Part shown: positions 1 through 15,152 of the stretch, piece after piece | Layout of the letters: every line of letters begins with the position of its first letter | Position numbering within the stretch: position 1 is the stretch's first letter | Assembly: GCA_022703645.1 (NCBI GenBank) | Contig: JAKLDG010000001.1 | Span: 274,814 to 338,813, forward strand | Length of the DNA stretch: 64,000 nucleotides | Reading direction: 5' to 3' | From: Patescibacteria group bacterium | GTDB taxonomy: Bacteria > Patescibacteriota > JACPGU01 | The notes under the pieces: model-generated | What the model was told of the DNA's origin: nothing | The model's database searches: none | What the model saw: the letters and a program-made list of their open reading frames with translations, nothing else | Program-made: the position numbers and the translations under genes

Positions 1-1033
1 TGTCCAGTTTATTCATAAATCCAAGTGAATGTGACGAGAATATTAATTGAGCCTTTTTATTTTTATCTTCATCAATAAAATAACCAATAAGTTTATTTAA
101 AGCTTCCGGATGAAAACCAGTTTCAAGCTCGTCAATAATAACAACATTATTATTTTTCAATGCACTTAGGATATTTGCCATTACAAAGAATAATGATTTA
201 GTGCCTCTCGATTCATATCCAAAATCCAGTTTGTTATTTTCTGTTTTAGTAGAGTGAACGCCTTGTACGGTTATAGAGAATCCCTTTTCTCTGACATCTT
301 CTTTGATTTCAAAACTATTTAACCCAATATCAAAATGGCGAATAAAATTTTCTACTTCTTTTTTTAGTTCAGAATCACTTAAATAAACCTTAAGTGCATC
401 AATTTGATGCATAACATGATTTATTTCGCCTCTTTCATTAATGTTGGTTTTAAATCCTAAGAAATAATCATAAACACTGTTTATGATATCAACGCTATAA
501 GTAGATTTCTTTATAAAGGCTATAAAAGAAACATCCTCTCTTATTTTTGGAAGAGCACTTATAGAAATATTCTTAAAATAATTTTCATTTAACGAATCTA
601 TAGTGCTTAATTGGCGCGAGAATATTTTTATTTTTTTTGAACCCGCTTGGATTGCTTTTATGTATAGGGATTCTTTTGTGATAATGTCTTTTTTTATTGA
701 GAAGTCATAAAAAAACACATTATTATTATGCTCGAATTCAACATAAAAATTTGATAACTTATCATTACCAAAAAAGGTTTTGAAGGCAATGCCTGGCATA
801 AGAGGGAATTCATCATTTATATTTCTGCATACAAAAAACTTTAGAAAACTAAAGAATCTCATGACATTTGTTTTACCCGATGCATTGCCACCAATAAAAC
901 CAGCAATCTTTGTTATTTGGTCGTCAGTCTTCGACTGATAATAGTCGTAAGTTTTTTTCTTTTTCGCTAGAAAACTAATTTCTTGCTCCTTGTTGAAGGA
1001 ATAAAAATTACTAAACTTTACCTTTCTTATCAT
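1..1033 (-). CDS. AAA-family ATPase (AAA_15/AAA_21-like), 3' end beyond window
   Basis: Minus-strand translation from ATG at 1031-1033 gives MIRKVKFSNFYSF...IGGNASGKTN (Walker A GxNxSGKT), later ...VIIDELETGFHPEA (Walker B-like DE plus HP). The reading frame stays open to the window edge. Confidence 0.5.
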   Translation of the reverse strand, partial: MIRKVKFSNFYSFNKEQEISFLAKKKKTYDYYQSKTDDQITKIAGFIGGNASGKTNVMRFFSFLKFFVCRNINDEFPLMPGIAFKTFFGNDKLSNFYVEFEHNNNVFFYDFSIKKDIITKESLYIKAIQAGSKKIKIFSRQLSTIDSLNENYFKNISISALPKIREDVSFIAFIKKSTYSVDIINSVYDYFLGFKTNINERGEINHVMHQIDALKVYLSDSELKKEVENFIRHFDIGLNSFEIKEDVREKGFSITVQGVHSTKTENNKLDFGYESRGTKSLFFVMANILSALKNNNVVIIDELETGFHPEALNKLIGYFIDEDKNKKAQLIFSSHSLGFMNKLD

Positions 1034-1119
1034 ATTTTTTGAGTTATTATTATTTCTCTAGCTAAGTATATCAGTGATTAAATAATAAGTCAAGTTAATA
1101 CAAAATATTGTATTAAGTC

Positions 1120-1480
1120 CTTAGATAGTCATTCATCTCACGGCTTTGCCGTGCCCCCTCTATAATATAAAAAATCAAATTCGTTTTCCCCTATATAAAA
1201 AAGCCTATCAATATTCCTTATTATAAGAAAAATATTTATTGAATTGCGTATAATGTCTCAGTATATCTGATGTTTCGCTCGATACCAAATTAGTTGAAAA
1301 TAGAAGAGCAGAAATATGGACGAACCCCGAGCCGAGGGGTGAGTCAGATATACTGTGTTAGGCGAGGGATTGATTTACTTACATTATTGAATATATATAA
1401 AAAGTAATCAAGAGCGCAGCGCCCCCTTGAGTTTCAAAAAACAAACTTCTCCTTTATTTAAGAGCTCTTTTGGGATTTTT
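1120..1480 (+). repeat. Modular island repeat, copy A (h1 hairpin 1126-1165; three-way-junction core 1250-1362; reversed AAGAGCTCTT module 1414-1480)
   Basis: Core has stem cagtatatctg/cagatatactg, CTGATGT junction, variable hairpin, AATATGG, a GAGCGA-like box and a GTGTTA tail. It is one of 10 copies. Confidence 0.85.
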
Positions 1481-1572
1481 ATTTTAATTGTTAAACAAGG
1501 ATTAATTTTACAGTTAATGTCAAATATGATAAAATGTGGAAAGAAAAAAAGAAAGGAGCGTGACCTTAACAA

Positions 1573-1958
1573 TGGATAATATGACAGCAGTTGTCTGGGC
1601 AAACAGAACGGAGAGAAGAATCTCCCAAAAAGACCTTCAGAAGATAATAAAGGATCATCTTCGCGAACTTGCGGATATGTATAACAAGTTCACGGACGCC
1701 AGTGATTTCACAAATAATGGCATGGATGTTATAGCCAAAGAAATCAGCGAACGCTTAAAAACCCTCATCGTAACAGGTGGCAACCAGATGGTGTCGGTTT
1801 CGGCGAGCGAAGATGATGTTTCAATAGCGCTCATAGAAATGAGCAAAGAAGGATTCTTCGAGGGCGGGCCGACCGGGTTTTTGGTGGTTGATGTGAAGGG
1901 AAGCCTTACGGAGTTCAAGCTGAAGACGGGAGTCAGAACGAAAACTCGATACGAATAA
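1573..1958 (+). CDS. Hypothetical protein (cassette 1; ~50% GC)
   Basis: ORF 1536..1958. An ATG at 1573 follows the RBS-like gaaaggagcg. GC is clearly higher than the flanks. It is followed by a terminator hairpin and T-run at about 1995-2025. Confidence 0.5.
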
Positions 1959-2017
1959 GTTTTCACACGCAATTCATTACACACAATGTCGAAGCTGGCC
2001 GCTGAGGTCGGCTTTTT

Positions 2018-2215
2018 TTCTTTCCCAAAAATCCCAAAAGAGCTCTAATTAAAATATAAAAAAGTTTGTTTTTGAAATTTCGCCTAATGTTTCGGTATAT
2101 CTGATGTCTAGGCTCGCTACCCAATTAAGTTGATGTAGGAAGAGCATAGATATGGGCGCAGGTTTGCGACTTAGCGAACCGTAGCCAGATATACCGTGTT
2201 ATGTGACGTCATGAA
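2018..2215 (+). repeat. Modular island repeat, copy B (forward AAGAGCTCT module 2018-2085; core 2085-2205)
   Basis: Core stem cggtatatctg/cagatataccg, CTGATGT, hairpin, GATATGG, GTGTTA. Confidence 0.85.
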
Positions 2216-2246
2216 AAATTCTTAATTCGACGATTTTAGTCGAATT

Positions 2247-2273
2247 TTAATCAGGGCAGATTTATTTTTTTAT
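2247..2273. repeat. Left 27-bp terminal inverted repeat flanking the cassette-2 methyltransferase gene
   Basis: ttaatcagggcagatttatttttttat is the exact reverse complement of 3058-3084. Confidence 0.9.
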
Positions 2274-3034
2274 TTCTTGGTTATTATGATTAAGTCGTCC
2301 TTAAAATCTAAGTAATTATTCCTTTGATGTTTTATGATGTTGGCTAAAAACTTCTTTACTTCTGTTGCAGTTGGGAGGGTGTTAGTGTTATGTATAAACC
2401 TATAGTAGTTCTTCAAATCAAAGTTTATTTTCCCGCTCAATATATCGCCCACATACATTCGCATTTTGTAGCGCTTTGTTTTTACAGAAAAGCCCTGTTT
2501 TTTATAAAAATCCGAAATATATTCCGAATAATTAAACTTTGGATACACTTGTTTTATAGCAATGTTATAGTGGTCACTTTCTTCAGGTAAGGTTAATATC
2601 AAAAGCTTACCTTTTTTCTTCAACAAGTCAGTCAGTTTTAACAACTGCTCTTGATAACTCTTTTCATCGGATGCCCAGTAATAATTCGTGTGAGAGGTAA
2701 AAATATAATCATATTTTTCATCGGTTTTTAGTTTGGATAGGGGTGCAGTGAATAGCTTTCCTATATTATTCTCGGGCGATAAAAATGTTTTCGCGTACGA
2801 CAGAGCTTTTTTGTTCGGTTCCAATAGATCGCATGAATAATCATACTCCAATCTGTCTAATATCTGTTTTGTAGTATGACCTTCGCCACATCCAATATCT
2901 AAAATCTTTCCACCTTTTATCTCTTTAACTATACCAAATACAATACCGAACCAGTCTTCGGTTAAGGCTCTGATATATATATTCTCATATACTTCTGCGA
3001 ATTGTTTTTCTCCCCAAAAATCCCATTTTGTCAT
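2270..3034 (-). CDS. Class I SAM-dependent methyltransferase (cassette 2)
   Basis: 254 aa with motif I ILDIGCGEGHTT. It is bounded by perfect 27-bp inverted repeats. Confidence 0.65.
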   Translation of the reverse strand: MTKWDFWGEKQFAEVYENIYIRALTEDWFGIVFGIVKEIKGGKILDIGCGEGHTTKQILDRLEYDYSCDLLEPNKKALSYAKTFLSPENNIGKLFTAPLSKLKTDEKYDYIFTSHTNYYWASDEKSYQEQLLKLTDLLKKKGKLLILTLPEESDHYNIAIKQVYPKFNYSEYISDFYKKQGFSVKTKRYKMRMYVGDILSGKINFDLKNYYRFIHNTNTLPTATEVKKFLANIIKHQRNNYLDFKDDLIIITKK

Positions 3035-3057
3035 AAATATATGTATTTTATTATATC

Positions 3058-3084
3058 ATAAAAAAATAAATCTGCCCTGATTAA
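3058..3084. repeat. Right 27-bp terminal inverted repeat (partner of 2247-2273)
   Basis: ataaaaaaataaatctgccctgattaa. Confidence 0.9.
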
Positions 3085-3109
3085 TTTTGCGTGAGCTACG
3101 CAAAAAAGA

Positions 3110-3441
3110 ATTTTTTATTATGTCACATAATGTCTCCGAGTATCTGATGTCTTTGATTTCCTTCAATATTACATTAAATATAAAAGGAAAGCAAAGATAT
3201 GGGTTGAGCGACGGCAGGAGCGAACCAGATACTCGGTGTTGGGCGACCCGAACGAGCTATTCACTTTATTAAATGTAAAAAGCGAGTGAGAGTGCAACGC
3301 GGTGCAAACGTCCATTTTCTTTTTCCTTTATTTATTGCTGGCTGTAACCACTCATAGTATTAGTAATTATAAGAAAATTTTGCTTCTCCATTTTTGGGCG
3401 AGGTCAGAGGGGATTCAGGGGTGAATGACCGAAGCCCAAAA
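3110..3441 (+). repeat. Modular island repeat, copy C (core 3125-3245; tail module; GGGG-loop hairpin 3392-3441)
   Basis: Core stem ccgagtatctg/cagatactcgg, a compensatory variant of copy A. The 3' module is ttttgggcgaggtcagaggggattcaggggtgaatgaccgaagcccaaaa. Confidence 0.85.
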
Positions 3442-3533
3442 TCATAAATGTTTTCAAAAAAATGTTATTTAAGGTATAATATTTGTTGAACAATAAGTTG
3501 TACCCTAAAAAACGAAAAAAGGAGGTGGTGGTT

Positions 3534-4403
3534 GTGATAAAGTTTTCCAATGGTCATGCCTTTGAATACATGACAGCAAGTGGTGCGTTGGGTTTCGACG
3601 GAAAAGGTTGGCCATGGGAAAAACCGTGGCACTGGCTCGGACTTTTTGACCCGACACTCTTTACTTCGGTAACCAAAACATTGACGCTTCAACCAAGGGA
3701 AGGAAATCTGCGGTGGTATAATCCGCTCCGATGTTTGCGGTTCGTCAGCGGTGGGGTCGTCAATGCAGTTGGTTTGTCAAATCATGGCGTTGATTGGTGG
3801 TGCAATAAGATTGGTCCATCAGTCACTTCCAAAAAAATTCCTTTGGTCGCTTCAATTTTTGGGGAACCAGAGGAATTAGTAGAAATGGCAAGAATGCTGG
3901 ACGGTTTTGACTTGGTCGGACTGGAAATCAATGCATCATGTCCGAACACTGAAACTTGCATTCTGCAAGATACTACGAGAGTAATTGCAAGTTGCGAAGC
4001 GGTCAAAACCAATTCACGCCTACCACTGATTCTGAAAGTATCAGTTACTCACGATGTTCCACGAATCACGAAAGAGGTCGAGGGTCTCATTGACGCAATT
4101 TCGATCAATAGCGTTCCTTGGTCAATGGCTTTTCCAAATCGCAGAAGCCCTCTCGAAAATCTCGGAAACGGTGGCGTATCAGGTAAAGTTGCCCAACCGT
4201 TCACGTGGGGCTTGGTCAAAAAAATTACCGAATTAACAAGTATTCCGGTAATCGGACCGAGCGTTTGGGACTTCGACGACCTCGAAAAAGTCAGAAATTT
4301 TGGTGCGAAGGCCGTCAGTTTTGGTTCTGTCTTTCTGTATCGTCCGTGGAGTCCGACGCTGTATGTTCGGAAAGAACAAAAATTCAAACGATTAAGGGTA
4401 TAG
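3534..4403 (+). CDS. Dihydroorotate dehydrogenase-family TIM-barrel flavoprotein (PyrD-like; cassette 3)
   Basis: NAVGLSNHGVDWW and LEINASCPN, the class-1 DHOD active-site Cys motif. The likely start is GTG at 3534 after GGAGGTG; the ORF track began at an upstream TTG. GC is about 47%. A terminator sits at 4404-4440. Confidence 0.55.
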   Translation: MIKFSNGHAFEYMTASGALGFDGKGWPWEKPWHWLGLFDPTLFTSVTKTLTLQPREGNLRWYNPLRCLRFVSGGVVNAVGLSNHGVDWWCNKIGPSVTSKKIPLVASIFGEPEELVEMARMLDGFDLVGLEINASCPNTETCILQDTTRVIASCEAVKTNSRLPLILKVSVTHDVPRITKEVEGLIDAISINSVPWSMAFPNRRSPLENLGNGGVSGKVAQPFTWGLVKKITELTSIPVIGPSVWDFDDLEKVRNFGAKAVSFGSVFLYRPWSPTLYVRKEQKFKRLRV

Positions 4404-4446
4404 TGGCACCCTGTCATAAATGACGAAGCCACTTTTTATTTTCCCC

Positions 4447-4834
4447 TTAAATAGTCCTTCATCTCACAGCTTTGCTGTGCCCCCTATAAATAAAATAAAA
4501 AAGCAAAATTTTCCCTTTGTTAGAAGAAAATAAATATTCAGTCATCACAAACCTTGCCAGCAAAATATAAGAAAAGAAAATGTATGTCGCCCAATGTTTC
4601 CGAGTATCTGATGTTGCTGATTATTTCTACCTTTATTTTATTATATAAAAGAAAAATCAGCAATATGGGTTGAGGGGCGAGCCGAGCCCCGAACCAGATA
4701 CTCGGTGTTAGGCGAGGGTTCATTTCCCCTTCATTATTAGATTAAATATAAAAGGGGGAATGAAAGCGCAGCGCCCCCTTGAGTTTCAAAAAACAAACGT
4801 CACCTCTATCTAAGAGCTCTTTTGGGATTTTTTG
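4447..4834 (+). repeat. Modular island repeat, copy D (h1 hairpin 4450-4493; core 4592-4712; reversed AAGAGCTCTT module 4766-4834)
   Basis: Core stem ccgagtatctg/cagatactcgg. Its internal hairpin is ttgctgattatttct...agaaaaatcagcaa. Confidence 0.85.
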
Positions 4835-4860
4835 GCTCTGGCGAATTGACCAAAAAAAGC

Positions 4861-4889
4861 TTGACAGAGCCACAAATATGTGATACAAT
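4861..4889 (+). promoter_or_regulatory. Sigma70-like promoter for cassette 4 (TTGACA-17-TACAAT)
   Basis: ttgacagagccacaaatatgtgatacaat lies upstream of an AAGGAGG RBS. Confidence 0.6.
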
Positions 4890-4939
4890 GATTATGTAAA
4901 AAATTTAATGCCCGAGTGGCATATAAGGAGGAAAGGACA

Positions 4940-5218
4940 TTGAAAACAAAGAAAGAGTTAATCGAAGAGAAAAGCGACGGTGTGTTCGGCGCTATGACAG
5001 GTCTGGTGCAGTTTGCTTCGCTGGTAAGTGATGAGGAATTCGCACTGCTGTGCGATAACATTCCCAGCGGCGAACATCTCTGGCTGGACTTCAAGAAGTA
5101 CCGCGACTCAAAGTTTGAAGGTTTCGGTATGTTGCACTATTTTCTTGGCAAGCTGGTAAAAGTCAAGCCAGAGATAGCCACGAAACTCGGGTTCGATCCC
5201 GAAACGGTTGCTCTTTAG
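4940..5218 (+). CDS. Hypothetical small protein (cassette 4; ~50% GC)
   Basis: ORF 4916..5218. TTG at 4940 is 7 nt after aaggaggaaagg. It is followed by a terminator. Confidence 0.4.
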   Translation: MKTKKELIEEKSDGVFGAMTGLVQFASLVSDEEFALLCDNIPSGEHLWLDFKKYRDSKFEGFGMLHYFLGKLVKVKPEIATKLGFDPETVAL

Positions 5219-5299
5219 TTCACACTGTACACGTCTGCGGTACAGCAATAAAACTCCGCGCTGAAATGTTCTTCGGAACAAATCGGCCACGGAGTTTTT

Positions 5300-5672
5300 T
5301 TCTTTCCCAAAAATCCCAAAAGAGCTCTAATTAAAATATAAAAAAGTTTGTTTTTTGAAATTTCGCCTAATGTTTCGGTATATCTGATGTTTCAGCTCGA
5401 TACCAAATTAGTTGATAAAAGAAGAGCAGAAATATGGACCGAGCGAGGGCACGAGCGAGTCAGATATACTGTGTTACCCGACCCGAGCATTTCTTTCATC
5501 TTTATTATATGTAAAAGAATGCGAGAGTGCAACGGGGCAAGCCCCCCCAAGGGCGCAGCGTGTATCTTTCGCTCATTGTTATTAGATTGAACACTTAAAA
5601 GAGATTCAAAACAGAATTATTCCATTTTTGGGCGAGGTCAGAGGGGCAGGGGTGAATGACCGAAGCCCAAAA
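5300..5672 (+). repeat. Modular island repeat, copy E (forward AAGAGCTCT module 5300-5368; core 5368-5478; tail; GGGG-loop hairpin 5626-5672)
   Basis: The most complete copy. The core is near-identical to copies G and H. Confidence 0.85.
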
Positions 5673-5685
5673 CCTTAAATGAATT

Positions 5686-6333
5686 TTATTTTTTCTGTCC
5701 GAAGTTAAGTTTGCGAATTACATTGAAATGCATACTTTCGTCAGGAACAATATAAACAAGACCATCGCATAAAAATTCTCCTGCGCTTGTTTTATCTTCC
5801 AATTCTTTCAATAAATCTGCGGTTTCTTCTTTCGAAATGAATTCTGCAATCGTCATGTGCGGGTTGAACGGAAATCTTCTTGGAACAGCTTCTGAAAATA
5901 ATGAAGCGCTTTCAATTTTTTCTCGTACTGCGTTTAGTTCGGTTTGATTTTCCAAAGGGAAAGCAACTCCTGGGTATGGTGGGTAATCCTTGGGTTTGCC
6001 ATAATTAATTTCGAAAGGTTTAATTTCAGAAGCAATGTTCTGCAATTCCTGCCAATCTTCTTCGGTTAATGGTTTGGGTACGGGCACCGAAATACTAATA
6101 TGTGTATCACAACTAGCCTGCGATTTAGGATCATACTTCGAGCGAAGGGAATTGACCAATGAAAGCACCGGTTCAGGCGGCATGATTAAAATGAGTCCAT
6201 AACGATATTCTTTTTCCCAATTTTCCCAATTATCAACATTTGAAACATATTCAGTAATCGGTTTATTTTTTTCAATTTGTTCATGCGCTGGGGTTGAATC
6301 GTTTTTATTCTCTGGCCAATTTTTTTCTGTCAT
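5686..6333 (-). CDS. 2H phosphoesterase (LigT/2',5'-RNA ligase-like; cassette 5)
   Basis: Two H-x-(T/S)-x motifs (CDTHISI and NPHMTI) about 80 aa apart. The N-terminus MTEKNWPE shares the MT..WP leader with cassettes 7 and 8. Confidence 0.55.
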   Translation of the reverse strand: MTEKNWPENKNDSTPAHEQIEKNKPITEYVSNVDNWENWEKEYRYGLILIMPPEPVLSLVNSLRSKYDPKSQASCDTHISISVPVPKPLTEEDWQELQNIASEIKPFEINYGKPKDYPPYPGVAFPLENQTELNAVREKIESASLFSEAVPRRFPFNPHMTIAEFISKEETADLLKELEDKTSAGEFLCDGLVYIVPDESMHFNVIRKLNFGQKK

Positions 6334-6344
6334 ATAATTATTTT

Positions 6345-6794
6345 TATTAATAAATAGTCCTTCAACTCGTAGCTTTGCTACGCCCCTCTTAAATATAAAA
6401 ATTCTGTTTTAATTTTGTTCAGGCTCAGCACAAACATTTAGAAACAAAAAAGAAAGATACATGTCTGGGTAATGTATGCGTATATCTGATGTTTTTGACT
6501 TGCTTCAATGTTAAATTAAATATAGAAAAAAGTCAAAAATATGGACGAGCGACAGCCGGAGCGAGTCAGATATACGCTGTTCTACGACCCGAAGCCCGAT
6601 ATTCAATATTTATTATATGTAAAATCGGGGTGAGAGTGCAACGCGGGCGTCAGCCGTACATTTTCTTTTTCATTATTATTTATTGCTGGCTGTAACCACT
6701 CAGAGTATTAGTTATTAAATGAAAATTTTGCTTCTCCATTTTTTGGGCGAAGGTCAGAGGGGAATTAAAGGGGTGAATGACCTGAGCCCAAAAT
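6345..6794 (+). repeat. Modular island repeat, copy F (h1 variant hairpin 6352-6388; core 6470-6585; tail; GGGG-loop hairpin 6741-6794)
   Basis: h1 is ctcgtagctttgctacg, a compensatory variant of cacggctttgccgtg. Core stem is gcgtatatctg/cagatatacgc. Confidence 0.85.
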
Positions 6795-6876
6795 CCCTTA
6801 ATGAATTTTGGACAAAAAAATATGCCCGGATTACCGCCGGGCGCGGGATCGTTTACAGAACGGAGAGCACAAGGTT

Positions 6877-7203
6877 TCATTTGTGCTCTTGATCAAAAAA
6901 ATCTTCGAAGTCTTTCAGGGTTTTGCGAAGCTTGGATTTTTTTGGTAAGGACTTTTTGCCGTGGGTTTCAATCTCGATTCTCACCGGAACTTCAAATCCT
7001 TTGGTTTTTTCCGTGAAAAACATCGTCCCACTTGTGCCGACAACATCAGCATCCACTTCTCTCAAGAAATCTCTGTTAAATAAAATGGGATGTCTTTTGC
7101 CTTTTGCATCTCCGAGAGAAACTCTGACACTGTGGGGGAGGACTTCGATAACAAGAAAGGGATATCCCTTTTGTTCTTCTGTGCTGAGGGCAGTTTTTTT
7201 CAT
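6877..7203 (-). CDS. Hypothetical protein, 108 aa (cassette 6)
   Basis: ORF only. I could not support a family assignment. Confidence 0.35.
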   Translation of the reverse strand: MKKTALSTEEQKGYPFLVIEVLPHSVRVSLGDAKGKRHPILFNRDFLREVDADVVGTSGTMFFTEKTKGFEVPVRIEIETHGKKSLPKKSKLRKTLKDFEDFFDQEHK

Positions 7204-7317
7204 AATTCAGATTCCTCGCTTCCTTTGGTTTTTTTGATATGTTAAGGTATTTCAATAATACCACAAATGTTTGGATTTGTCAATGGCTTTTTGGCACAAC
7301 AGAGCTAAAAAACCAAA

Positions 7318-7752
7318 TTAAATAGTCCTTCATCTCACGGCTTTGCCGTGCCCCCTCTATAATCAAATAAAAAAGCAAAATTTTCCCTTTGTTAGAAAAG
7401 AATAAATATTCAGTCATCACAAACCTTGCCAGCAAAATATAAGAAAAGAAAATGTATGTCGTAGAATGTCTCAGTATATCTGATGTTTCGCTCGATACCA
7501 AATTAGTTGATAAAAGAAGAGCAGAAATATGGACCGAGCGAGGGCACGAGCGAGTCAGATATACTGTGTTACCCGACCCGAGCATTTCTTTCATCTTTAT
7601 TATATGTAAAAGAATGCGAGAGTGCAACGGGGCGAAGCGTGTATCTTTCTGACTATTGATATTAGAATTAACACTTAAAAGAGAACAAAACAGAATTATT
7701 CCATTTTTGGGCGAGGTCAGAGGGGCAGGGGTGAATGACCGAAGCCCAAAAC
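7318..7752 (+). repeat. Modular island repeat, copy G (h1 hairpin 7322-7366; core 7465-7575; tail; GGGG-loop hairpin 7704-7752)
   Basis: The X-type upstream module is near-identical to 4447-4600. The core is near-identical to copy E. Confidence 0.85.
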
Positions 7753-7753
7753 C

Positions 7754-8602
7754 TTATTTAAAATATTGTGGCACCATCCCTACTTCGGCTAATTTGTTAC
7801 ATTCTATTTCCCACGATTCTTTTTCTTTTTTTGCCATTTCTAAACCCTCCCATAAATCGCTTTTAGAATCTGTGTACAAAAAATTTCTATAAATATTCGA
7901 AAAGGTTGTATGGCGAAAAGATTTTTCTCCATAGGCAACATCTCCTTGATTATCTAAAAATATTTTTTCAATATTATCAACCATCGCGTTCAAACAATGC
8001 AAGAATTCTTGTAGAAAATAAAAAGCATTTCCCATTTTGATTCTTAACTTTTGTTGATAGTCATCAAAATATTCCGGATTAAATGGTCTTGATAGAAATT
8101 GAAAGCAATCCTCCACGCCTTTTGCATCATTTGCAATTCTATCGTAAATTTTTTTTCTAAAATTCGCATCTGATTCATTCTTGGGATCACGATTTTTATC
8201 AATTATTAAAATCGCATCATTAATAATTGGTTCAACATTTTTAACAAAGTAATTTTTAGCCTCGCGCCACTTACCTTCTAATTCTTCTCTTAGTTTTGGA
8301 AATTCCGTTACTTTTATAAATCTAATGTCTTTAGAAGGGGATATGTTAAAGGTAGGATTCTTTATTATAACATCTATTGGTGGAAGCATCCTTGTTAATT
8401 CGTCAATCTTTTCACCTATTTTCTCATCACTAAATTCATTTTTATATTTTTCTAAAAATTTTTCTATATTTTTTATGGTTTTCTCTATAAATTCACTTTT
8501 TTCTGCTCTTTTTTCGACCACATTAATATTATCAACTTTGGGTTGTTCTTCTTTTAGTGGGTTAGTGTTGTCGCCTGTCGGCCATTTTATTGGATCTGTC
8601 AT
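7754..8602 (-). CDS. Hypothetical protein (cassette 7) with the shared MTDPIKWP N-terminal leader
   Basis: ORF 7754..8635 from an upstream TTG inside the repeat module. The ATG at 8602 gives MTDPIKWPTGDNTNP, followed by a Pro/Glu/Lys-rich region. Confidence 0.45.
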   Translation of the reverse strand: MTDPIKWPTGDNTNPLKEEQPKVDNINVVEKRAEKSEFIEKTIKNIEKFLEKYKNEFSDEKIGEKIDELTRMLPPIDVIIKNPTFNISPSKDIRFIKVTEFPKLREELEGKWREAKNYFVKNVEPIINDAILIIDKNRDPKNESDANFRKKIYDRIANDAKGVEDCFQFLSRPFNPEYFDDYQQKLRIKMGNAFYFLQEFLHCLNAMVDNIEKIFLDNQGDVAYGEKSFRHTTFSNIYRNFLYTDSKSDLWEGLEMAKKEKESWEIECNKLAEVGMVPQYFK

Positions 8603-8619
8603 AAGTTTATTTTTTATTA

Positions 8620-9044
8620 ATAAATAGTCCTTCAACTCGTAGCTTTGCTACGCCCCTTTTAAATATAAGAATTCTGTTTTGATTTTATTCAGGTTCAGCA
8701 TAAACATTTAGAAGAAAAAAAGAAAGATACATGTCTGGGTAATGTTTCAGTATATCTGATGTTTCAGCTCGCCACCTTATTCACTTGATAGAGAAAGAGC
8801 AGAAATATGGACCGAGCGAGGGCACGAGCGAGTCAGATATACTGTGTTACCCGACCCGAGCCCTGATACCTTATTTATTATATGCAAAGAAGGGCGAGAG
8901 TGCAACGGGGCAAGCCCCTCAAGGGCGAAGCGTGTATCTTTCTGTTCATTGTTATTAGATTTAATACTTAGAAGAGATTCAAAACAGAATTATTCAATTT
9001 TTGGGCGAGGTCAGAGGGGCAGGGGTGAATGACTGAAGCCCAAA
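8620..9044 (+). repeat. Modular island repeat, copy H (h1 variant 8624-8662; core 8740-8852; tail; GGGG-loop hairpin 8997-9044)
   Basis: Same architecture as copy F and copy E. Confidence 0.85.
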
Positions 9045-9055
9045 ACCTTGATAAT

Positions 9056-9931
9056 TTAATCCTTCTTTTTTGTAAATAAATGCACTGCATTTGGACCAGC
9101 AACACCAAAAATACCTTCATGATGTGTTTTATAACCAGATAGATCAAGAGATTGATGAAGTATAATGCATCCTTCTGGGCTTAGTACTCTATCAATTTCT
9201 TTATTTATAGCCTTAACATATTCTGGGTCTGCATCGTGCATTACACAATCGTCTATACCTGAAGCGTAAATACTAACCGAGTCATCAGGAAGTCTTCTTA
9301 AAAAGGAAAGCATATCTTCATCAGCTACTGAGGCAGGAATCCCGTGAAAATATTCTATCTTCCCTTGTGTATAGTTGCTATTCGTATTGATCAGTTCTGA
9401 TAGTGAGTTCTTTAATTCTGATTTACTTTTGTCTAATGTCTCACTAAGTTGGGAAGAGAAAAATTTATCTACACCGACATATGATTTTGCTCCCAATATG
9501 TCAAGGATGTAGTACGCATCTCTACCGCTCATACCGGCTCCTAGGTCAATTACTATTTGGTTTTTGAGATGTTCCAGCGTAGTCGCAAAGGTTGTGTTTT
9601 GTTCGTTTACTCCTGCATTACGATTTTTAAATTTTTCAATAAGCTCTCCCTCTGTCAAATCCGGATTTGCATTTTTTAAATTAACAAAAAATTTCAAAGG
9701 ATTAATCATCCATCTGAATGCACTATCAGAAAAAGATTGTGGAAGATCGTATCCAGTTTTTTTAAATTCTTTACCAATATCAGTGTTCTGTTCTTTTTCT
9801 TTGATTCCGGGAACTAGCTCTTCAACTGGTCTTAAAATACTTTCTTCTGATTCTTTTTCTACAGTGTTTTCAACTTCAATTTTTGGCTTAGGTGGTTCTG
9901 TATTTGGGTTTGGCCATTTTGGGTCTGTCAT
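9056..9931 (-). CDS. Class I SAM-dependent methyltransferase-like protein (cassette 8) with the shared MTDPKWP leader
   Basis: VIDLGAGMSGRDAYYIL is a motif-I-like sequence. The ATG at 9931 gives MTDPKWPNPNTEPP; the ORF track started at an upstream TTG inside the repeat. Confidence 0.5.
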   Translation of the reverse strand: MTDPKWPNPNTEPPKPKIEVENTVEKESEESILRPVEELVPGIKEKEQNTDIGKEFKKTGYDLPQSFSDSAFRWMINPLKFFVNLKNANPDLTEGELIEKFKNRNAGVNEQNTTFATTLEHLKNQIVIDLGAGMSGRDAYYILDILGAKSYVGVDKFFSSQLSETLDKSKSELKNSLSELINTNSNYTQGKIEYFHGIPASVADEDMLSFLRRLPDDSVSIYASGIDDCVMHDADPEYVKAINKEIDRVLSPEGCIILHQSLDLSGYKTHHEGIFGVAGPNAVHLFTKKKD

Positions 9932-9944
9932 AGATTTATTTTTT

Positions 9945-10310
9945 ACTATTAAATAGTCCTTCAACTCGTAGCTTTGCTACGCCCCTCTTAAATATAAAGA
10001 ATTCTGTTTTGAATTTCGTTAAGCTCAGTACAAGCGTTTAGAAGTAAAAAAGAAAGATACATGTTGGGTAATGTCTCATAGTATCTGATGTTGCTGATTA
10101 TTTCTACCTTGATTATATTATACAGAAGAAAAATCAGCAATATGGGTTGAGGGGCGAGCCGAGCCCCGAACCAGATACTATGTGTTAGGCGAGGGTTCAT
10201 TTCCCCTTCATTATTAGATTAAATATAAAAAGGAAATGAAAGCGCAGCGCCCCCTTGAGTTTCAAAAAACAAACTTCACCTCTATTTAAGAGCTCTTTTG
10301 GGATTTTTTG
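9945..10310 (+). repeat. Modular island repeat, copy I (h1 variant 9948-9986; core 10070-10190; reversed AAGAGCTCTT module 10240-10310)
   Basis: Core stem catagtatctg/cagatactatg, another compensatory variant. Confidence 0.85.
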
Positions 10311-10318
10311 GCTACCTA

Positions 10319-10347
10319 TTGACATTTTTTGGGAAATATGATAAGAT
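10319..10347 (+). promoter_or_regulatory. Sigma70-like promoter for cassette 9 (TTGACA-17-TAAGAT)
   Basis: ttgacattttttgggaaatatgataagat upstream of an aaaggag RBS. Confidence 0.5.
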
Positions 10348-10397
10348 TAATTATCGGTTTTTGCGGATATATAATCCAATAGAAAGGAGTAAAATCG

Positions 10398-10790
10398 ATG
10401 ATCTTTAAGAACTTACAATTGGAAACAGGCGACTTTGTTGCGTTTCAAACAGAGGCTGTTCCGCTTCCGGAAGTTCAGGCGGCTGTCATCGGTATTGAGG
10501 ATGGCGTACTCGAAGTCATGAGTACCTTGCTCGCACCATTCCAGCACAACGGGAAATTTACAGAAGACGAGGTAGGCCAAATCATGGTCGTCTATCCATC
10601 AGCGATTGCCATTCCTCGGGAGTCTCGAGGCAAAAACTTCTCTAAACACCAAGGTGTATCCGTCATCATCAAGGGCGGAGAGGAACATCGGGGTGAAGTT
10701 GTTGCTGCGTTCGACGGTATCGTCGTGGCACGCAGAAGCGATGGTGAGCTGATCACCGGCGGAGCTTCGCATTTCAATGCTGTTGCCTAA
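10398..10790 (+). CDS. Hypothetical protein, 130 aa (cassette 9; ~50% GC)
   Basis: ATG with RBS. GC is well above the flanks. A terminator follows at about 10815-10846. Confidence 0.5.
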   Translation: MIFKNLQLETGDFVAFQTEAVPLPEVQAAVIGIEDGVLEVMSTLLAPFQHNGKFTEDEVGQIMVVYPSAIAIPRESRGKNFSKHQGVSVIIKGGEEHRGEVVAAFDGIVVARRSDGELITGGASHFNAVA

Positions 10791-10842
10791 GAATCGACAG
10801 CAAGTCCTGCTAATTGAGCGCACGACCTACGGGTACGGCGCT

Positions 10843-11135
10843 TTTTTCTTCCCTAAAAATCCCAAAAGAGCTCTAATTAAAATATAAAAAAGTTTGTTTT
10901 TTGAAATTTCGCCTAACGTTTCGGCATATCTGATGTTTGCCGTAGCGTAGCGAAGGCAAATATGGGTGGAGGCTTTTGTATAAAAGCCGTAACCAGATAT
11001 GCCGTGTTATGTGATGTGCATGTTTTACTTTAATCCTGATAGCAATCGGGATTGCTCTAAAAAAGAATTTTAATTTTGTTTTTTTGTTTTGGATTTTGGG
11101 CAGAGGGGTTAGGGGTGAATGCCCAAAATCCAAAA
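10843..11135 (+). repeat. Modular island repeat, copy J (forward AAGAGCTCT module 10843-10918; core 10915-11012; GGGG-loop hairpin 11089-11129)
   Basis: Core stem cggcatatctg/cagatatgccg. The perfect hairpin is ggattttgggc-agaggggttaggggtgaa-tgcccaaaatcc. Confidence 0.85.
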
Positions 11136-11139
11136 CTCC

Positions 11140-11547
11140 TTATTCTGCTAATAATTTAAACACTAAGCTAAATATTTTTGGTGAAAAATCTTTATAAATT
11201 AACTCTCTCGTCTCGTCCTCACCAAATGACCAAAATTTACCATTAATTTCTAAACCAGTAGGATAATGACTCTCGTGAAATAATTTATTTCTTATTTCTC
11301 TTAAAGATTCTAAAAATTTAAGTTCCGCGTCATCAATTAAATCCTTTTCTTTAGCTTCTGTAATTATTCTATGAAAATTGCCGTCAATTTTATTGACAGA
11401 AAATTTTATAATCTGTTCTGACAAAACAAATAGACAAGCAAGCGCAGAAAAGTAATTTTCTTGTTCATAAGAATTTTGTGCCTCGAAACATAATTTCCCA
11501 AAAATATGGTCTCTTTCATTTATTTTTGCAATTATATCGGTATTCAT
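11140..11547 (-). CDS. Hypothetical protein, 135 aa, co-oriented with and abutting the C5-methyltransferase gene
   Basis: ORF only. Its stop is 2 nt from the methyltransferase start. Confidence 0.4.
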   Translation of the reverse strand: MNTDIIAKINERDHIFGKLCFEAQNSYEQENYFSALACLFVLSEQIIKFSVNKIDGNFHRIITEAKEKDLIDDAELKFLESLREIRNKLFHESHYPTGLEINGKFWSFGEDETRELIYKDFSPKIFSLVFKLLAE

Positions 11548-11549
11548 GT

Positions 11550-12527
11550 TTATTTCAAATCAGCCATTATTTTTTTTGCTAAATGGTGGGCAAAATTTAC
11601 TGCGACAGCATTTCCAATCATTTTATATCCGTCGGCAATATCACGATATTTAAAAATAAAATTATCAGGGAATGTTTGAATCCTTGCACATTCACGAACA
11701 GACAAGCGACGATATAAATGTTCTTTTCCGGGAACAAAAATTCTTTTATTTTGACTGATAAATTTCATTTTCGGAGCTTGGGGATGAATTGGAGCATGGC
11801 GACCACCGGCTTGAATGGTAAAAGAAGGTTCATCCCATGAGCGAACACGATTTCGCGACATATAAATTGAAGAAAAACCGCCATTCATGTATTCGTGATT
11901 TGGAATTTTTAACACATCGCCATTTGTCTTATTTTTATCTAACGCAGGTTTTGCTAAACGCAAATCATAAATAGCGTCTTTCAATACTGGTTTATATTTT
12001 TGCGGTTCTGGAAATTCAAATTTTTTCTTTAGTTTTTTATTATATCCAACAATAATGACACGCAATCTATCTTCAGGAACATCATAATCATTTGCATTTA
12101 ATAATTTGCAGGAAATTTCATATCCAGCATTTTCAAATTCTTTTATTATATTTGAAAAAGCCTCTTTGTGTTTAGGGTGAAGAATACCCGATACATTTTC
12201 TGCAAGAAAAAATTTTGGTTGTTTTTCCTTTAATAAACGAATGTAATCATAAAATAATTTTCCTCTTTTATCATTTATTCCACGTCCAGCCCCAGCCTCG
12301 CTCCAACTTTGACAAGGTGGTCCGCCAATGATTCCGTCAACATCGGGAATTTCAGAAGCAGGGACGTCGACAATACTTCTTTTATCAAGTTTTGTTTTTG
12401 GAAAATTGTGTTCAAAAGTTTCCCAAATTGTGGGGTCATATTCATTTGCCCAGACGACATGAAAACCAGCTTTTTCAAAGCCTAAATCAAGTCCTCCTGC
12501 ACCTGTAAACAATGAAGCTATTTTCAT
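11550..12527 (-). CDS. DNA (cytosine-5)-methyltransferase
   Basis: Motif I FTGAGGLDLGF, motif IV GGPPCQSWS, ENV. Confidence 0.9.
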   Translation of the reverse strand: MKIASLFTGAGGLDLGFEKAGFHVVWANEYDPTIWETFEHNFPKTKLDKRSIVDVPASEIPDVDGIIGGPPCQSWSEAGAGRGINDKRGKLFYDYIRLLKEKQPKFFLAENVSGILHPKHKEAFSNIIKEFENAGYEISCKLLNANDYDVPEDRLRVIIVGYNKKLKKKFEFPEPQKYKPVLKDAIYDLRLAKPALDKNKTNGDVLKIPNHEYMNGGFSSIYMSRNRVRSWDEPSFTIQAGGRHAPIHPQAPKMKFISQNKRIFVPGKEHLYRRLSVRECARIQTFPDNFIFKYRDIADGYKMIGNAVAVNFAHHLAKKIMADLK

Positions 12528-12529
12528 AA

Positions 12530-13534
12530 TTATTCGTGACTAATATTTAGTGTGTTTTTAAATAATTTTTTCGGCGATTTCAAAAGATTTATATCAAATT
12601 TCAAAGACGATTCAACCCTAGAACTTGCATTATGAATACGAAAAGAAAGAGTCCAATCATTATTCATGGTTACTATTGCCGTTGTTTGGCTATCGGTTTT
12701 GAAACAAATATCAACAATTTCTGTTGGCAATGGAACTTTTGGTGTTTTGTATTTTGGAAGAATGTCGTTAAAAGGCAAATTTAATGTTCCATTCAAATTG
12801 TATGCGTGTATTTCTACACTATTTTTGCCTTTAATAACTTTGTAAAAATCTTTATTTCCAACGAGGTATGCAACTAGATTAGACGCTACTTTTTTAGAAT
12901 CTTTTTTGTATAGATTTTTCAGTTCTTTAATAAAGGCTTTTAAAATTGGAATATAGATTGATGAATGATAATCACCAAGCTCACTCCACTTTTTCTTTGC
13001 ACCGCTTTCTTTTCTAATTTTCTCTAAATTGTTAAAAATAGGTGTTACTGTTTCAAAATATTCTTTTGATGTTTTTATTCCAAGCCACTTTTCACCAAAA
13101 TCAATATTTGAAGATAGTCGGGAATGCTTTACTGCATGATGATTGTTTTTGGCCGATACTCCAATTTCCCATTTTTGCAACAAACGAATTGCTAAAACAT
13201 CTCTAACATCGCCTGATTTTCCATGTTGATCGGATAAAATTTCAAGTTGCAGAATATCATCTTTACCAACATCATTTGTGAGGCGTGGCTCTATATCCAT
13301 TAGAAAATTAACCGCAAAACTAGCGGTGAGTAAATAATCACTTTTTTCTGTTTCGCTCACATTTTCAAAACATCCTTTTGCAATTTCAAAAGAAGAATTT
13401 TTGATAACTTCAAGATTTGTTTTATCTTTCAATTTTTCTTCAAATTGAACAAGTAAAGCATATTCAAAAGATTTTCCAGTTGTCATTTGTCTTGATGCAG
13501 TAGTAGTCATATTTTTATTATTACATTTTTCCAT
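12530..13534 (-). CDS. Putative cognate Type II restriction endonuclease
   Basis: 334-aa ORF directly upstream of and co-oriented with the C5-methyltransferase gene. I recognise no motif, so the call rests on context only. Confidence 0.35.
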   Translation of the reverse strand: MEKCNNKNMTTTASRQMTTGKSFEYALLVQFEEKLKDKTNLEVIKNSSFEIAKGCFENVSETEKSDYLLTASFAVNFLMDIEPRLTNDVGKDDILQLEILSDQHGKSGDVRDVLAIRLLQKWEIGVSAKNNHHAVKHSRLSSNIDFGEKWLGIKTSKEYFETVTPIFNNLEKIRKESGAKKKWSELGDYHSSIYIPILKAFIKELKNLYKKDSKKVASNLVAYLVGNKDFYKVIKGKNSVEIHAYNLNGTLNLPFNDILPKYKTPKVPLPTEIVDICFKTDSQTTAIVTMNNDWTLSFRIHNASSRVESSLKFDINLLKSPKKLFKNTLNISHE

Positions 13535-13662
13535 TTAAAAATAAATCGTTTTCGTAGCGGAGCGGAGAAAACACCTTATACCCCTTTCTAATTAATAAAA
13601 AACAAAATTTAAATTCTTTTTTAGAGCTGGGCGATAGCCCAAAAGTAAAACATGCATTTCAC

Positions 13663-13709
13663 ATAACTCGTTTTTATCTGAATATATTTCAGATAAAAAC
13701 GAGTTACGG
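13663..13709. promoter_or_regulatory. Perfect 19-bp-arm palindrome in the divergent region between the REase and recombinase genes
   Basis: taactcgtttttatctgaa-tatat-ttcagataaaaacgagtta. It contains the ATCTGA/TCAGAT boxes also present in the repeat cores. Confidence 0.5.
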
Positions 13710-13783
13710 TAGTTTATGCGGTTATTGTGTACATTCTTCAACATCTTTGATATTATCGATTTAATATTATCATTTTTTATTAT

Positions 13784-14605
13784 ATGCAACAATACTTAGA
13801 TAGATTGTCGCAGGAATTACGATTAAGAAATTATAGTAACAGCACGGTCGAAAGTTACCTGACGTGCGTGAAATATTATTTTTATTTTGTGGAAAGAAAT
13901 GGCGCAAGAATTGAAGATGGTGATCAGGATATTCTCAAATCATTTCTTCTTGATAAACATAACAAAGGGTCCTCATCACAAACGATCAATCTTTATCTCA
14001 ATGCGATAAAGTTTTTTTATCGGGAAATCATGAAATCACCACAAAGTATCGATATTAGATTTGCCAAGAAATCAAATAAGCTGCCGGTAGTCCTCTCGCA
14101 TGATGAGATTGAAAGAATTATTGAAGTAACAAAAAATTCAAAGCATCGGCTCATTATTTCGCTGAGCTATGGCGCAGGGTTGAGAGTGAGCGAAATCATA
14201 AGTTTAAAAGTTAAAGACTTGGATTTGGATAGCTTAACGATTCACCTAAAAAATGCGAAGGGGAAAAAGGACAGAATTACGGTTTTGCCGGTAAAATTAG
14301 TTAATTCTTTGCGCAATGCGGTTGCGGGCAAGGATATTGATGATCTGGTTTTTGAAAGCGAGAGAGGCGGGGGATTGACCGATCGGACTGCACAGGTCAT
14401 TTTCAACAATGGGTTGAGGAGAGCGGGAATCAAAAAAGAAGCGACATTCCACTCGCTTCGCCATTCGTTCGCTACACATCTGCTTGAAAACGGTACAGAC
14501 ATTCGTTACATTCAAGAATTGCTTGGACATCAAAATATTCGAACGACTCAAATTTATACAAAAGTGACAAACCCGGCGGTACGCAATATAAAAAGCCCGC
14601 TGTAA
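13784..14605 (+). CDS. Tyrosine site-specific recombinase (XerC/D-like phage-integrase family)
   Basis: AGLRVSE (catalytic Arg), HSLRHSFATHLL (H-x-x-R), LGHQNIRTTQIYTKV (nucleophilic Tyr). At 273 aa it is shorter than classical IntI. Confidence 0.85.
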   Translation: MQQYLDRLSQELRLRNYSNSTVESYLTCVKYYFYFVERNGARIEDGDQDILKSFLLDKHNKGSSSQTINLYLNAIKFFYREIMKSPQSIDIRFAKKSNKLPVVLSHDEIERIIEVTKNSKHRLIISLSYGAGLRVSEIISLKVKDLDLDSLTIHLKNAKGKKDRITVLPVKLVNSLRNAVAGKDIDDLVFESERGGGLTDRTAQVIFNNGLRRAGIKKEATFHSLRHSFATHLLENGTDIRYIQELLGHQNIRTTQIYTKVTNPAVRNIKSPL

Positions 14606-14624
14606 ATTTCATTTATCTTATAAA

Positions 14625-15152
14625 ATGCAAAACGAAAATAAAAATAGAAAATCAATCCGTTTAAAAGAATATGATTATTCTGAACCAGGAGATTATTTTG
14701 TTACAATTTGCACACAGAATCGAGAATGTTTGTTTGGGGAGATTGTAGACGGTAAGATGATTTTAAATGAAATGGGATTAATAGTTAATGATTGTTGGAA
14801 TGATTTAGAAAATCATTACCCGGGAATTTATTTGGATATATTTACAATCATGCCGAACCATATTCATTTTATATTAACAATATTGTGCGATGATCATATT
14901 GTAGGGGCGGGTTTGAAACCCGCCCCTACGGGGAAGCGATATCAATTGTTCGAGATAATTCGTGGGTTCAAAACATTCTCTGCAAGAAAAATAAATAAAA
15001 TGAAAAATACATCTGGTAATCCTGTTTGGCAACGCAACTATTACGAACACATCGTTCGCAACGAACAATCTTACGATGAAATTTATTCTTACATAGAGTC
15101 TAATTCTCAAACCTGGGATCGGGATAGGAATAATCCAAAAAATATGATATAA
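14625..15152 (+). CDS. IS200/IS605-family HUH transposase-like protein (RAYT/TnpA-REP-like)
   Basis: 175 aa with an HUH motif in IMPNHIHFIL. It contains an in-frame REP-like palindrome at 14901-14929. Confidence 0.65.
   Translation: MQNENKNRKSIRLKEYDYSEPGDYFVTICTQNRECLFGEIVDGKMILNEMGLIVNDCWNDLENHYPGIYLDIFTIMPNHIHFILTILCDDHIVGAGLKPAPTGKRYQLFEIIRGFKTFSARKINKMKNTSGNPVWQRNYYEHIVRNEQSYDEIYSYIESNSQTWDRDRNNPKNMI
14901..14929. repeat. REP-like palindrome GTAGGGGCGGGTTTGAAACCCGCCCCTAC inside the transposase ORF
   Basis: Perfect 13-bp arms. The same GTAGGGGCG head occurs at three operon-end hairpins. Confidence 0.7.

Follow-up and report, generated by a model that had tools for sequence, protein, structure and literature searches.

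What does it mean when three genes for unrelated proteins begin with the same few codons? The question is raised by a Patescibacteria group bacterium (assembly GCA_022703645.1, contig JAKLDG010000001.1, positions 274,814 to 338,813 of the forward strand), a stretch of 64,000 nucleotides (nt) that is called the window below and is numbered from its first letter. From position 1 to about 13,700, the window is part of an integron-like array of gene cassettes, more than 20 kb long and reading on the minus strand. Three of these cassettes, numbered 5, 7 and 8, carry open reading frames (ORFs) that start with one short leader, MT(D/E)..WP, followed by a 2H phosphoesterase, a protein of unknown function and a methyltransferase, respectively. 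With a rough probability of 0.55, the leader is best explained by the descent of all three 5' ends from a single one, or by gene conversion of the flank that precedes it, the different cargos having been joined in frame behind it.

A start region in front of three unrelated cargos

The features on which this rests are as follows.

6310 to 6333, minus strand: leader of cassette 5, codons 1 to 8, ATG ACA GAA AAA AAT TGG CCA GAG (MTEKNWPE)
8576 to 8602, minus strand: leader of cassette 7, codons 1 to 9, ATG ACA GAT CCA ATA AAA TGG CCG ACA (MTDPIKWPT)
9908 to 9931, minus strand: leader of cassette 8, codons 1 to 8, ATG ACA GAC CCA AAA TGG CCA AAC (MTDPKWPN)
5686 to 6333, minus strand: ORF of cassette 5, 215 aa, 2H phosphoesterase (2'-5' RNA ligase superfamily)
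7754 to 8602, minus strand: ORF of cassette 7, 282 aa from the ATG, function unknown
9056 to 9931, minus strand: ORF of cassette 8, 291 aa, class I S-adenosylmethionine (SAM) methyltransferase-like family
6334 to 6350, minus strand: A-rich extension of the 5' untranslated region (UTR) of cassette 5, without Shine-Dalgarno (SD) sequence, TTAATAAAAATAATTAT; equivalents at 8603 to 8620 (cassette 7) and 9932 to 9949 (cassette 8)
6334 to 6472, minus strand: whole type-A 5' flank of cassette 5, from the crossover (between A and TTACCC) to the ATG; equivalents at 8603 to 8742 (cassette 7) and 9932 to 10071 (cassette 8)
6351 to 6386, minus strand: generic 5' module (H5) of cassette 5, GGGG-CGTAGC-AAA-GCTACG-AGTTGAAGGACTATTTA; equivalents at 8621 to 8656 (cassette 7) and 9950 to 9985 (cassette 8)

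The three ATGs (6333, 8602 and 9931) are preceded by near-identical DNA. Pairwise identity is 87–91% over the 139–140 nt of 5' flank from crossover to ATG, 70–75% over the first 24 to 27 nt of the ORF, and 44–56%, which is background, over ORF positions 28–237; random pairs of 27-mers taken from the window are identical at 46% of positions on average, and none of 200 pairs reached 70%. The preliminary description, made from the letters alone, was thus right about the three start positions and the peptides MTEKNWPE, MTDPIKWP and MTDPKWPNP, and its estimate that identity runs some 25 nt into the coding region becomes 24–27 nt followed by an immediate drop to background. The repeat boundary therefore lies inside the ORF in cassettes 5, 7 and 8, with different cargos behind one start, as it had proposed. 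Aligned on the start, all three read ATGACAGA on the ATG side, then 7–10 divergent nt, then TGGCC, and the leader of cassette 7 has an in-frame 3-nt indel within the divergent stretch.

How far does this start region belong to the repeat? The cargo of every cassette is framed by two mutually complementary flanks, one of about 140 nt on the 5' side and one of about 200 nt on the 3' side, together referred to here as its chassis, and by flank complementarity cassettes 5, 7 and 8 form one chassis family, type A. The 5' flank ends in a hairpin module, H5, of the form GGGG-stem-AAA-stem-GAG[A/T]TGAAGGACTATTTA, of which 23 distinct copies were collected from this genome and 15 other contigs. Its stem is paired in 100% of the copies, three of its six pairs show covariation among them, and the motif matches the window six times against 0.9 expected. 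The generic module ends at GGACTATTTA, 17–18 nt before the ATG, and 17 of the 23 copies go on with AGG(G/A).. and from there reach either the promoter that belongs to the cargo or, where the cargo is inverted, its terminator. The idea that the repeat module itself encodes the leader consequently fails for the generic module, and holds only for a UTR and leader extension common to cassettes 5, 7 and 8: the order GGACTATTTA, then TTAATAAAAAATAAAnnT-ATGACAGA..TGGCC, is confined to these three. Among the H5 copies, an A-rich UTR with an ATG after GGACTATTTA occurs only in them and in L016, a locus from another metagenome, where the same type of UTR and ATG are followed by MSKDDKEK and not by the leader. 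L020, another metagenome contig, has a type-A 5' flank in front of a leaderless cargo with its own promoter and SD. Further proteins opening MT(D/E)..WP were looked for in 27 fetched loci (L001–L027), including 20 other H5-bearing cassettes, and none was found; a single scan of genomes and a single scan of metagenomes returned one and 14 contigs, respectively, with the H5 module and none with the leader, and two scans of viral contigs gave no match.

A fourth gene had been mentioned as loosely similar, the methyltransferase of cassette 2 (2270–3034, minus strand, start at 3034), which begins MTKWDFW. It opens ATGACAAAATGGGAT (MTKWD), which looks like the leader after loss of GACCCA. The likeness is there, but the chassis of this cassette is type D, also present in L001 and unrelated to type A, and the resemblance is indistinguishable from chance.

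The assignment of the cargos to a 2H phosphoesterase, an unknown protein and a SAM methyltransferase was upheld. The protein of cassette 5 matches Pfam 2_5_RNA_ligase2 (E 2e-17) with its catalytic HxS/HxT motifs intact, and the family of cassette 8, named class I SAM methyltransferase by NCBI, has the motif VIDLGAG, while cassette 7 gives no family match and only two remote homologues, both leaderless and with other N-termini. To judge by their homologues, which lack it and have disordered N-termini of their own, the leader is foreign to all three cargos. The closest 2H homologues of the cassette 5 protein (81–83% protein identity) are found outside such cassettes, the nearest of them a few kb from housekeeping genes and without any cassette chassis; they open M-I-T-x-Y-V, with a Met that aligns with Pro25 (CCG) of the cassette 5 protein, and at the DNA level the relatives L024 and L022 are homologous to it from about 58 nt after the leader ATG up to the stop codon. 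At 6255–6285 (minus strand), an apparent remnant of an older start, cATGAACAAATTGAAAAAAATAAA, is homologous to the ATG of the L024 relative and now lies out of frame. As the family Met has become CCG and the old start is out of frame, cassette 5 depends entirely on the leader ATG. Homologues of the cassette 8 protein are located among housekeeping genes in other genomes, with openings such as MEQKPLNPFENP and MSPFNPEGNPF.

The low-complexity stretch that had been noticed after WP, and taken for a linker in each protein, is in cassettes 7 and 8 a trait of the protein family, also seen in leaderless homologues, and not a linker supplied with the leader. The BLASTP likeness between these two proteins over their first ~70 residues (E 9e-5) is confined to E/K-rich disordered regions, which each family has independently of the other; that cassette 7 holds a diverged copy of the cassette 8 methyltransferase was considered and rejected (hhalign probability 0.6%).

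Is the leader translated? In cassette 5 the reading frame offers no start other than the leader ATG before codon 51, which lies past nearly invariant residues. Cassette 8 has no second in-frame start within its first 60 codons, and the first motif conserved in its family, VPVExLIPGIK, begins at about residue 35. Since no other start would keep the conserved residues, the leader must be translated in both. A start downstream of the shared segment, which would leave the leader untranslated, was thus found in neither of them; cassette 7 has one candidate, an in-frame GTG at codon 28, from which its translation could in principle begin. In the AlphaFold model of the cassette 5 protein, the confident fold starts at about residue 21, residues 1–20 have a predicted local distance difference test (pLDDT) score of ~60, and the leader is predicted to be disordered and outside the fold. 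The start region also looks like those of the host. Between 16000 and 64000, almost all of the listed housekeeping starts of the window lack an SD and are A-rich upstream with a recurrent AATAAA, and fusA opens ATGACAGACGAA. The type-A UTR resembles these upstream regions. It is thus an initiation region in the host's own style, A-rich and, by prediction, without structure around the leader start.

In all H5 copies, an ATG or TTG at GAG[A/T]TGAAGGAC opens a mini-ORF, MKDYL... (6331–6365, 8600–8635 and 9929–9964 in the window, minus strand), which varies in length in other copies and is probably not coding. A leaderless mRNA produced from a promoter with the H5 TTGAAG and a 17-nt spacer was also considered, and is not supported, the candidate -10 elements being poor or badly spaced.

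Origin of the leader

A recombination junction within the start region, one of the two explanations first offered, fits the unrelated cargos, the leaderless homologues, the CCG of cassette 5 and the leaderless L020. The three 5' ends would derive from a single ancestral cassette by one of two routes: a cassette could have been duplicated within the array and its ORF body then replaced downstream of about codon 8, or a gene conversion that homogenises the flanks could have overrun a few codons into the ORF. The in-frame products would have been tolerated on account of the disordered and variable N-termini of the cargo proteins, and the segment would provide a promoterless cargo with a start of the host type (A-rich AATAAA upstream, no SD), the heptapeptide being probably without a specific role. 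The methyltransferase of cassette 8 may have been the original owner of the leader, as its relatives open M-x-x-K-P-L-N-P or M-S-P-F-N-P, although K-P-L-N-P and F-N-P bear only a loose likeness to K-W-P-N-P and the hint is a weak one.

Several points weigh against this account. There are three copies in one genome, and descent and selection are statistically inseparable. The substitutions between the leaders of cassettes 7 and 8 are both synonymous (GAT/GAC and CCG/CCA) and the indel is in frame, a pattern that hints at constraint on the peptide or on the reading frame. TGGCC is kept in all three despite the diverged 7–10 nt before it, where the decay of a relic predicts otherwise. The replacement of cargos is itself a proposed mechanism, and the array is identical in the five samples that carry it, with no rearrangement caught. 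Could the chassis variant then be a built-in expression adaptor, consisting of an SD-less UTR, a start and a few codons, to which new ORFs are joined in frame? This reading, in which trimming would leave cargo ORFs no more than a few bases beyond their start and stop codons, is unlikely.

An action of the conserved bases as nucleic acid is unlikely to a similar degree, ATGACAGA and TGGCC(A/G) then forming an SD-less ribosome-loading region or a DNA site. The SD-less, A-rich host starts and the A-rich, unstructured leader would suit such a role, and so would the distribution of GGCC, which is ~2.5–3 times rarer in the window than other GC-only palindromes (51 sites against 132–151 for GCGC, CCGG and CGCG): the leader GGCC (6314, 8580 and 9912) is the sole one in each of the three cassettes, and the first cassette of the array encodes a RE_HaeIII-family enzyme and a C5 methylase, whose presumed target is GGCC. 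The link is nevertheless a numerical coincidence on three sites, RNA folds give TGGCC no consistent pairing partner, the leader is neither significantly similar nor significantly complementary to the 3' flank, and L016 has the same UTR and ATG without the motifs. (That the leader was copied directly from a part of the 3' flank, CTCTGACCTCGCCCAAAAATGG, was rejected, local alignments to five 3' flanks being no better than shuffles, p 0.16–0.94.) If the bases act through the peptide instead, MT(D/E)..WP would be a functional N-terminal tag for targeting, secretion, docking or regulated stability on interchangeable enzymes, which was the other explanation first offered. The frame is kept in all three, with cassettes 7 and 8 differing by synonymous changes or an in-frame indel, the D/E change is conservative, W-P is invariant, and the leader is predicted to be exposed and disordered in the cassette 5 model, as a tag would be. 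Against this, merely 7–8 residues are common to the three, and a search of the leaders for Sec, twin-arginine (Tat) and lipoprotein signals found no hydrophobic h-region, RR motif or lipobox before the catalytic domains. Kyte-Doolittle 11-residue maxima over the first 60 residues are -0.32 for cassette 7 and 0.49 for cassette 8, with no hydrophobic segment, and the maximum of 1.65 in cassette 5 falls within the catalytic domain (LILIMPP), which starts near residue 45. The leader occurs in none of the fetched loci, homologues of all three cargos function without it, those of cassette 8 in housekeeping neighbourhoods, the neighbourhood contains neither a secretion system nor immunity-like partner genes, and the three cassettes contain no partner ORF of the kind expected of polymorphic effectors. 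A tag is highly improbable on these grounds, and the suggestion of secretion or targeting was not borne out.

It is also very unlikely, if slightly less so, that the leader ATG is not the real start, or that the cassettes are decaying pseudogenes. The H5 TTG is in frame in cassettes 7 and 8 (where it would give MKDYLLIKNKL-MTDP...) and in L016, an ATG or TTG stands there in every H5 copy, and cassette 7 has its in-frame GTG at codon 28. In cassette 5, however, the TTG is frame-shifted and its frame stops at a TGA overlapping the ATG (ATATGA), so that it was rejected as a true common start; the mini-ORF varies in length and sequence in other chassis copies, the TTG directly follows a GC-rich hairpin, unlike native starts, and cassettes 5 and 8 have no downstream start that keeps the conserved residues. 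As for decay, the HxS/HxT motifs of cassette 5 are intact, in a protein 81–83% identical to its homologues. The least probable explanation, and a very improbable one, is that three genes came to open alike by chance or convergence on an A-rich host start context, in which ATGACAGA would be a common opening. The opening of fusA, the many native genes with an AATAAA-type upstream region and the MTKW of a fourth cassette ORF on another chassis lend it something. It has to face the absence of any 70–75% identity among the 200 random pairs, the equal UTR length (17–18 nt) and equal register of TGGCC in all three, and the single chassis subtype with flanks 87–91% identical, for which continuous homology is simpler; chance is already disfavoured.

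Chassis, recombination sites and array

The remaining features of the system are listed here.

5473 to 5685, minus strand: type-A 3' flank of cassette 5, from the stop codon to R'' GGGTAAC, complementary to its own 5' flank; equivalents at 7568 to 7753 (cassette 7) and 8846 to 9055 (cassette 8)
5365 to 5479, minus strand: attC-like core at the 3' end of cassette 5, R'' GGGTAAC ... AGTATATCTGA / TCAGATATAC ... GAAAC-A, then, across the crossover, TTAGGC; equivalents at 7461 to 7574 (cassette 7) and 8737 to 8852 (cassette 8)
13661 to 13707, minus strand: attI-like perfect hairpin with an 18-bp stem, GTAAC-TCGTTTTTATCTGA ... TCAGATAAAAACGA-GTTATGT, between recombinase and array
13784 to 14605, plus strand: IntI-like tyrosine recombinase, 273 aa, reading away from the array

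The complementarity of a cassette's own 5' and 3' flanks scores 25–55, against 14–21 for an adjoining neighbour of another type; each cassette therefore takes its flanks along, and in the excised circle they would lengthen the attC-like stem. The non-coding DNA of an excised cassette could fold as one branched hairpin of ~450 nt, tipped by the attC-like core. Chassis of the families A, B and C are seen repeatedly (window 1–13700; L002 1–20765), also in other metagenomes and with different cargos. The 3' flank opens with a second hairpin, H3, which lies at most ~15 nt from the stop codon in type-A cassettes and is placed after the cargo's own terminator in the others. Its loop of 16–17 nt is conserved (ATTCACCCCTGCCCCTC), while its stems of 13–17 bp are wholly different in sequence between copies (5634–5674, 7713–7753, 9007–9047 and equivalents in the window, L011 2167–2222, L002 1897–1951), hairpins here being judged from single-sequence folds; the stem covaries in the type-A flank of cassette 5 and its equivalents. 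The H3 loop is partly complementary to the sequences that flank the H5 hairpin (AGAGGGG ... GTGAGATGA). In a subset of chassis (L010 1074–1110, L017, L002 16646–16690 and L001), GGACTATTTA is followed by a conserved AGGGGATACAAAGGGTCAGAGGAATAAAAACCCTTGAC, with homology stopping at the -35 hexamer of the cargo promoter, and on the 3' side the T-run of a terminator is followed by CCAAAATTCATTAAGG; at these junctions, cargo boundaries thus coincide with transcription signals.

Beyond the attI-like site, hairpin cores number ten in the window and five more in L002, and share the form xxxxAAC..AGTATATCTGA ... TCAGATATAC..GARAC-A, followed across the crossover by TTxxxx. They have the R''/L'' and L'/R' hairpin of attC sites, with the crossover inside R'. 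In 14 of 14 scorable cassettes, the first 6 nt (TTxxxx) are the reverse complement of the cassette's own R'', and do not match the R'' of the neighbour in the same hairpin, which is a signature of integron-type cassette recombination. The core between two type-A cassettes folds into an R-box helix, an internal loop and a 12-bp L-box helix (z -2.8/-3.2 on the two strands), whereas a core between cassettes of different type has no such fold (z -1.6 and -0.6); the predicted internal loop is 2 x 5, instead of single bulged bases. R' reads ATTnnnn in 13 of 15 attC-like sites and GTT in one, with the site at L002 14135 left unscored, and GTT is also carried by the attI-like hairpin. The TTATGT of that hairpin matches the R'' ACATAAC with which the first cassette ends; this cassette holds the restriction-modification genes (11550–13534, minus strand; RE_HaeIII-family enzyme and C5 methylase). 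An Rfam scan of positions 1–15000 gave only a sub-threshold hairpin match, at the attI-like site.

The nearest solved structure to the recombinase is VchIntIA (2a3v), the integrase of a Vibrio integron, which it matches in two stretches. Its residues 182–202 replace chain residues 183–246 of VchIntIA, leaving ~43 residues missing, and the gap is the exact place of the IntI-specific insertion, between patches II and III. Against TIGR02249 (integron integrase) it scores 223.5 bits for a cutoff of 265, and against XerA NF040815 214.8 bits for a cutoff of 220. Because the IntI-specific domain was tested for and is absent, the array is named integron-like and not a canonical integron; nothing relevant on integrons in Patescibacteria or the Candidate Phyla Radiation came up in literature searches. 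Directly downstream of the recombinase lies a gene of the repetitive extragenic palindrome (REP)-associated tyrosine transposase / IS200-like type (14625–15152, plus strand; 52.7 bits against NCBIfam NF047646, below the cutoff of 80), so that a second enzyme family acting on single-stranded hairpins stands beside a hairpin-filled array.

The cassettes are not uniformly promoterless and co-oriented, several being inverted, with near-consensus sigma-70 promoters and a strong SD, and no common Pc promoter was identified. Three inverted and GC-richer cassettes (1536–1958, 4916–5218 and 10398–10790) have TTGACA-17-TAnAAT promoters together with SDs of the AGGAGG type, a hint that they are of foreign origin. 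Five assemblies contain the same DNA. In one of them it lies on an 866 kb Joint Genome Institute (JGI) contig, L002, in which the array runs on to the left of the window for at least 7.7 kb. Across the five the array is 99.97–100% identical, and a presence/absence polymorphism of cassettes between samples was rejected. In L005 1–142, the cassette downstream of cassette 5 is joined to another 3' flank of the same array, this segment being identical to L002 15475–15616 and 20073–20214; either repeats led the assembly to a false join here, or the order of cassettes truly differs.

Meaning and comparison with known systems

How integron cassettes are assembled, and how promoterless cargos are expressed deep in an array, are unresolved questions, and here the breakpoints between chassis and cargo are resolved to the base. 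On the 3' side they fall on the stop codon or no more than a few bases from it; on the 5' side a single start region is fused in frame to three unrelated cargos, which provides concrete junctions for testing models of cassette genesis (duplication and replacement, conversion, capture). It also means that cassette genes in an organism without SDs can inherit their start from the mobile element. If the adaptor reading were true and general, such junctions would record the building of cassettes, and so bear on the question of their origin.

The closest comparison is with integrons, and in particular with sedentary chromosomal ones such as those of Vibrio with their Vibrio cholerae repeats (VCRs). 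As in these, the long array goes with a tyrosine recombinase that points away from it, the hairpin sites of ~100–125 nt have R''/L''-L'/R' symmetry with a crossover after the first R' base, the TTxxxx at the start of a cassette matches its own R'', most cassettes hold one ORF, the repeats of one host are alike, and some cassettes are paralogues. In contrast to integrons, the recombinase lacks the IntI-specific insertion, the attI-like first site is a perfect hairpin, R' is mostly ATTnnnn and not GTTRRRY, each cassette has an additional 140 + 200 nt of structured, complementary flank that includes H5 and H3, many cassettes are inverted with promoters of their own, and three flanks run through the start codon.

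In class 1 integrons, aac(6')-Ib is known in variants with N-terminal fusions, and ORF-11 of attI1 aids the translation of cassettes that lack an initiation region. The cassettes described here resemble these fusions in that the start signal or the first codons are not native to the cargo, and that variable N-termini are tolerated. They differ in that the start of the class 1 fusions lies outside the cassette, in attI or in the preceding cassette, whereas here it lies inside, 139–140 nt after the crossover, and travels along.

Polymorphic toxins (of the Rhs, contact-dependent inhibition (CDI), LXG or MIX type) likewise place one N-terminus before unrelated C-terminal domains, with breakpoints inside the ORF. 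Their N-termini are folded, tens to hundreds of residues long, and tied to a secretion system and immunity genes, while the leader amounts to 7–8 disordered residues in front of ordinary enzymes that have homologues outside cassettes, with no immunity genes and no secretion system. The leader is, in the end, a translated junction specific to one chassis subfamily, and a modest curiosity compared with the array around it. With its short IntI-like recombinase, its cores of 100–125 nt, its structured flanks of ~450 nt and its patescibacterial host, that array is further from anything found described, and is of more interest to integron specialists than the heptapeptide.

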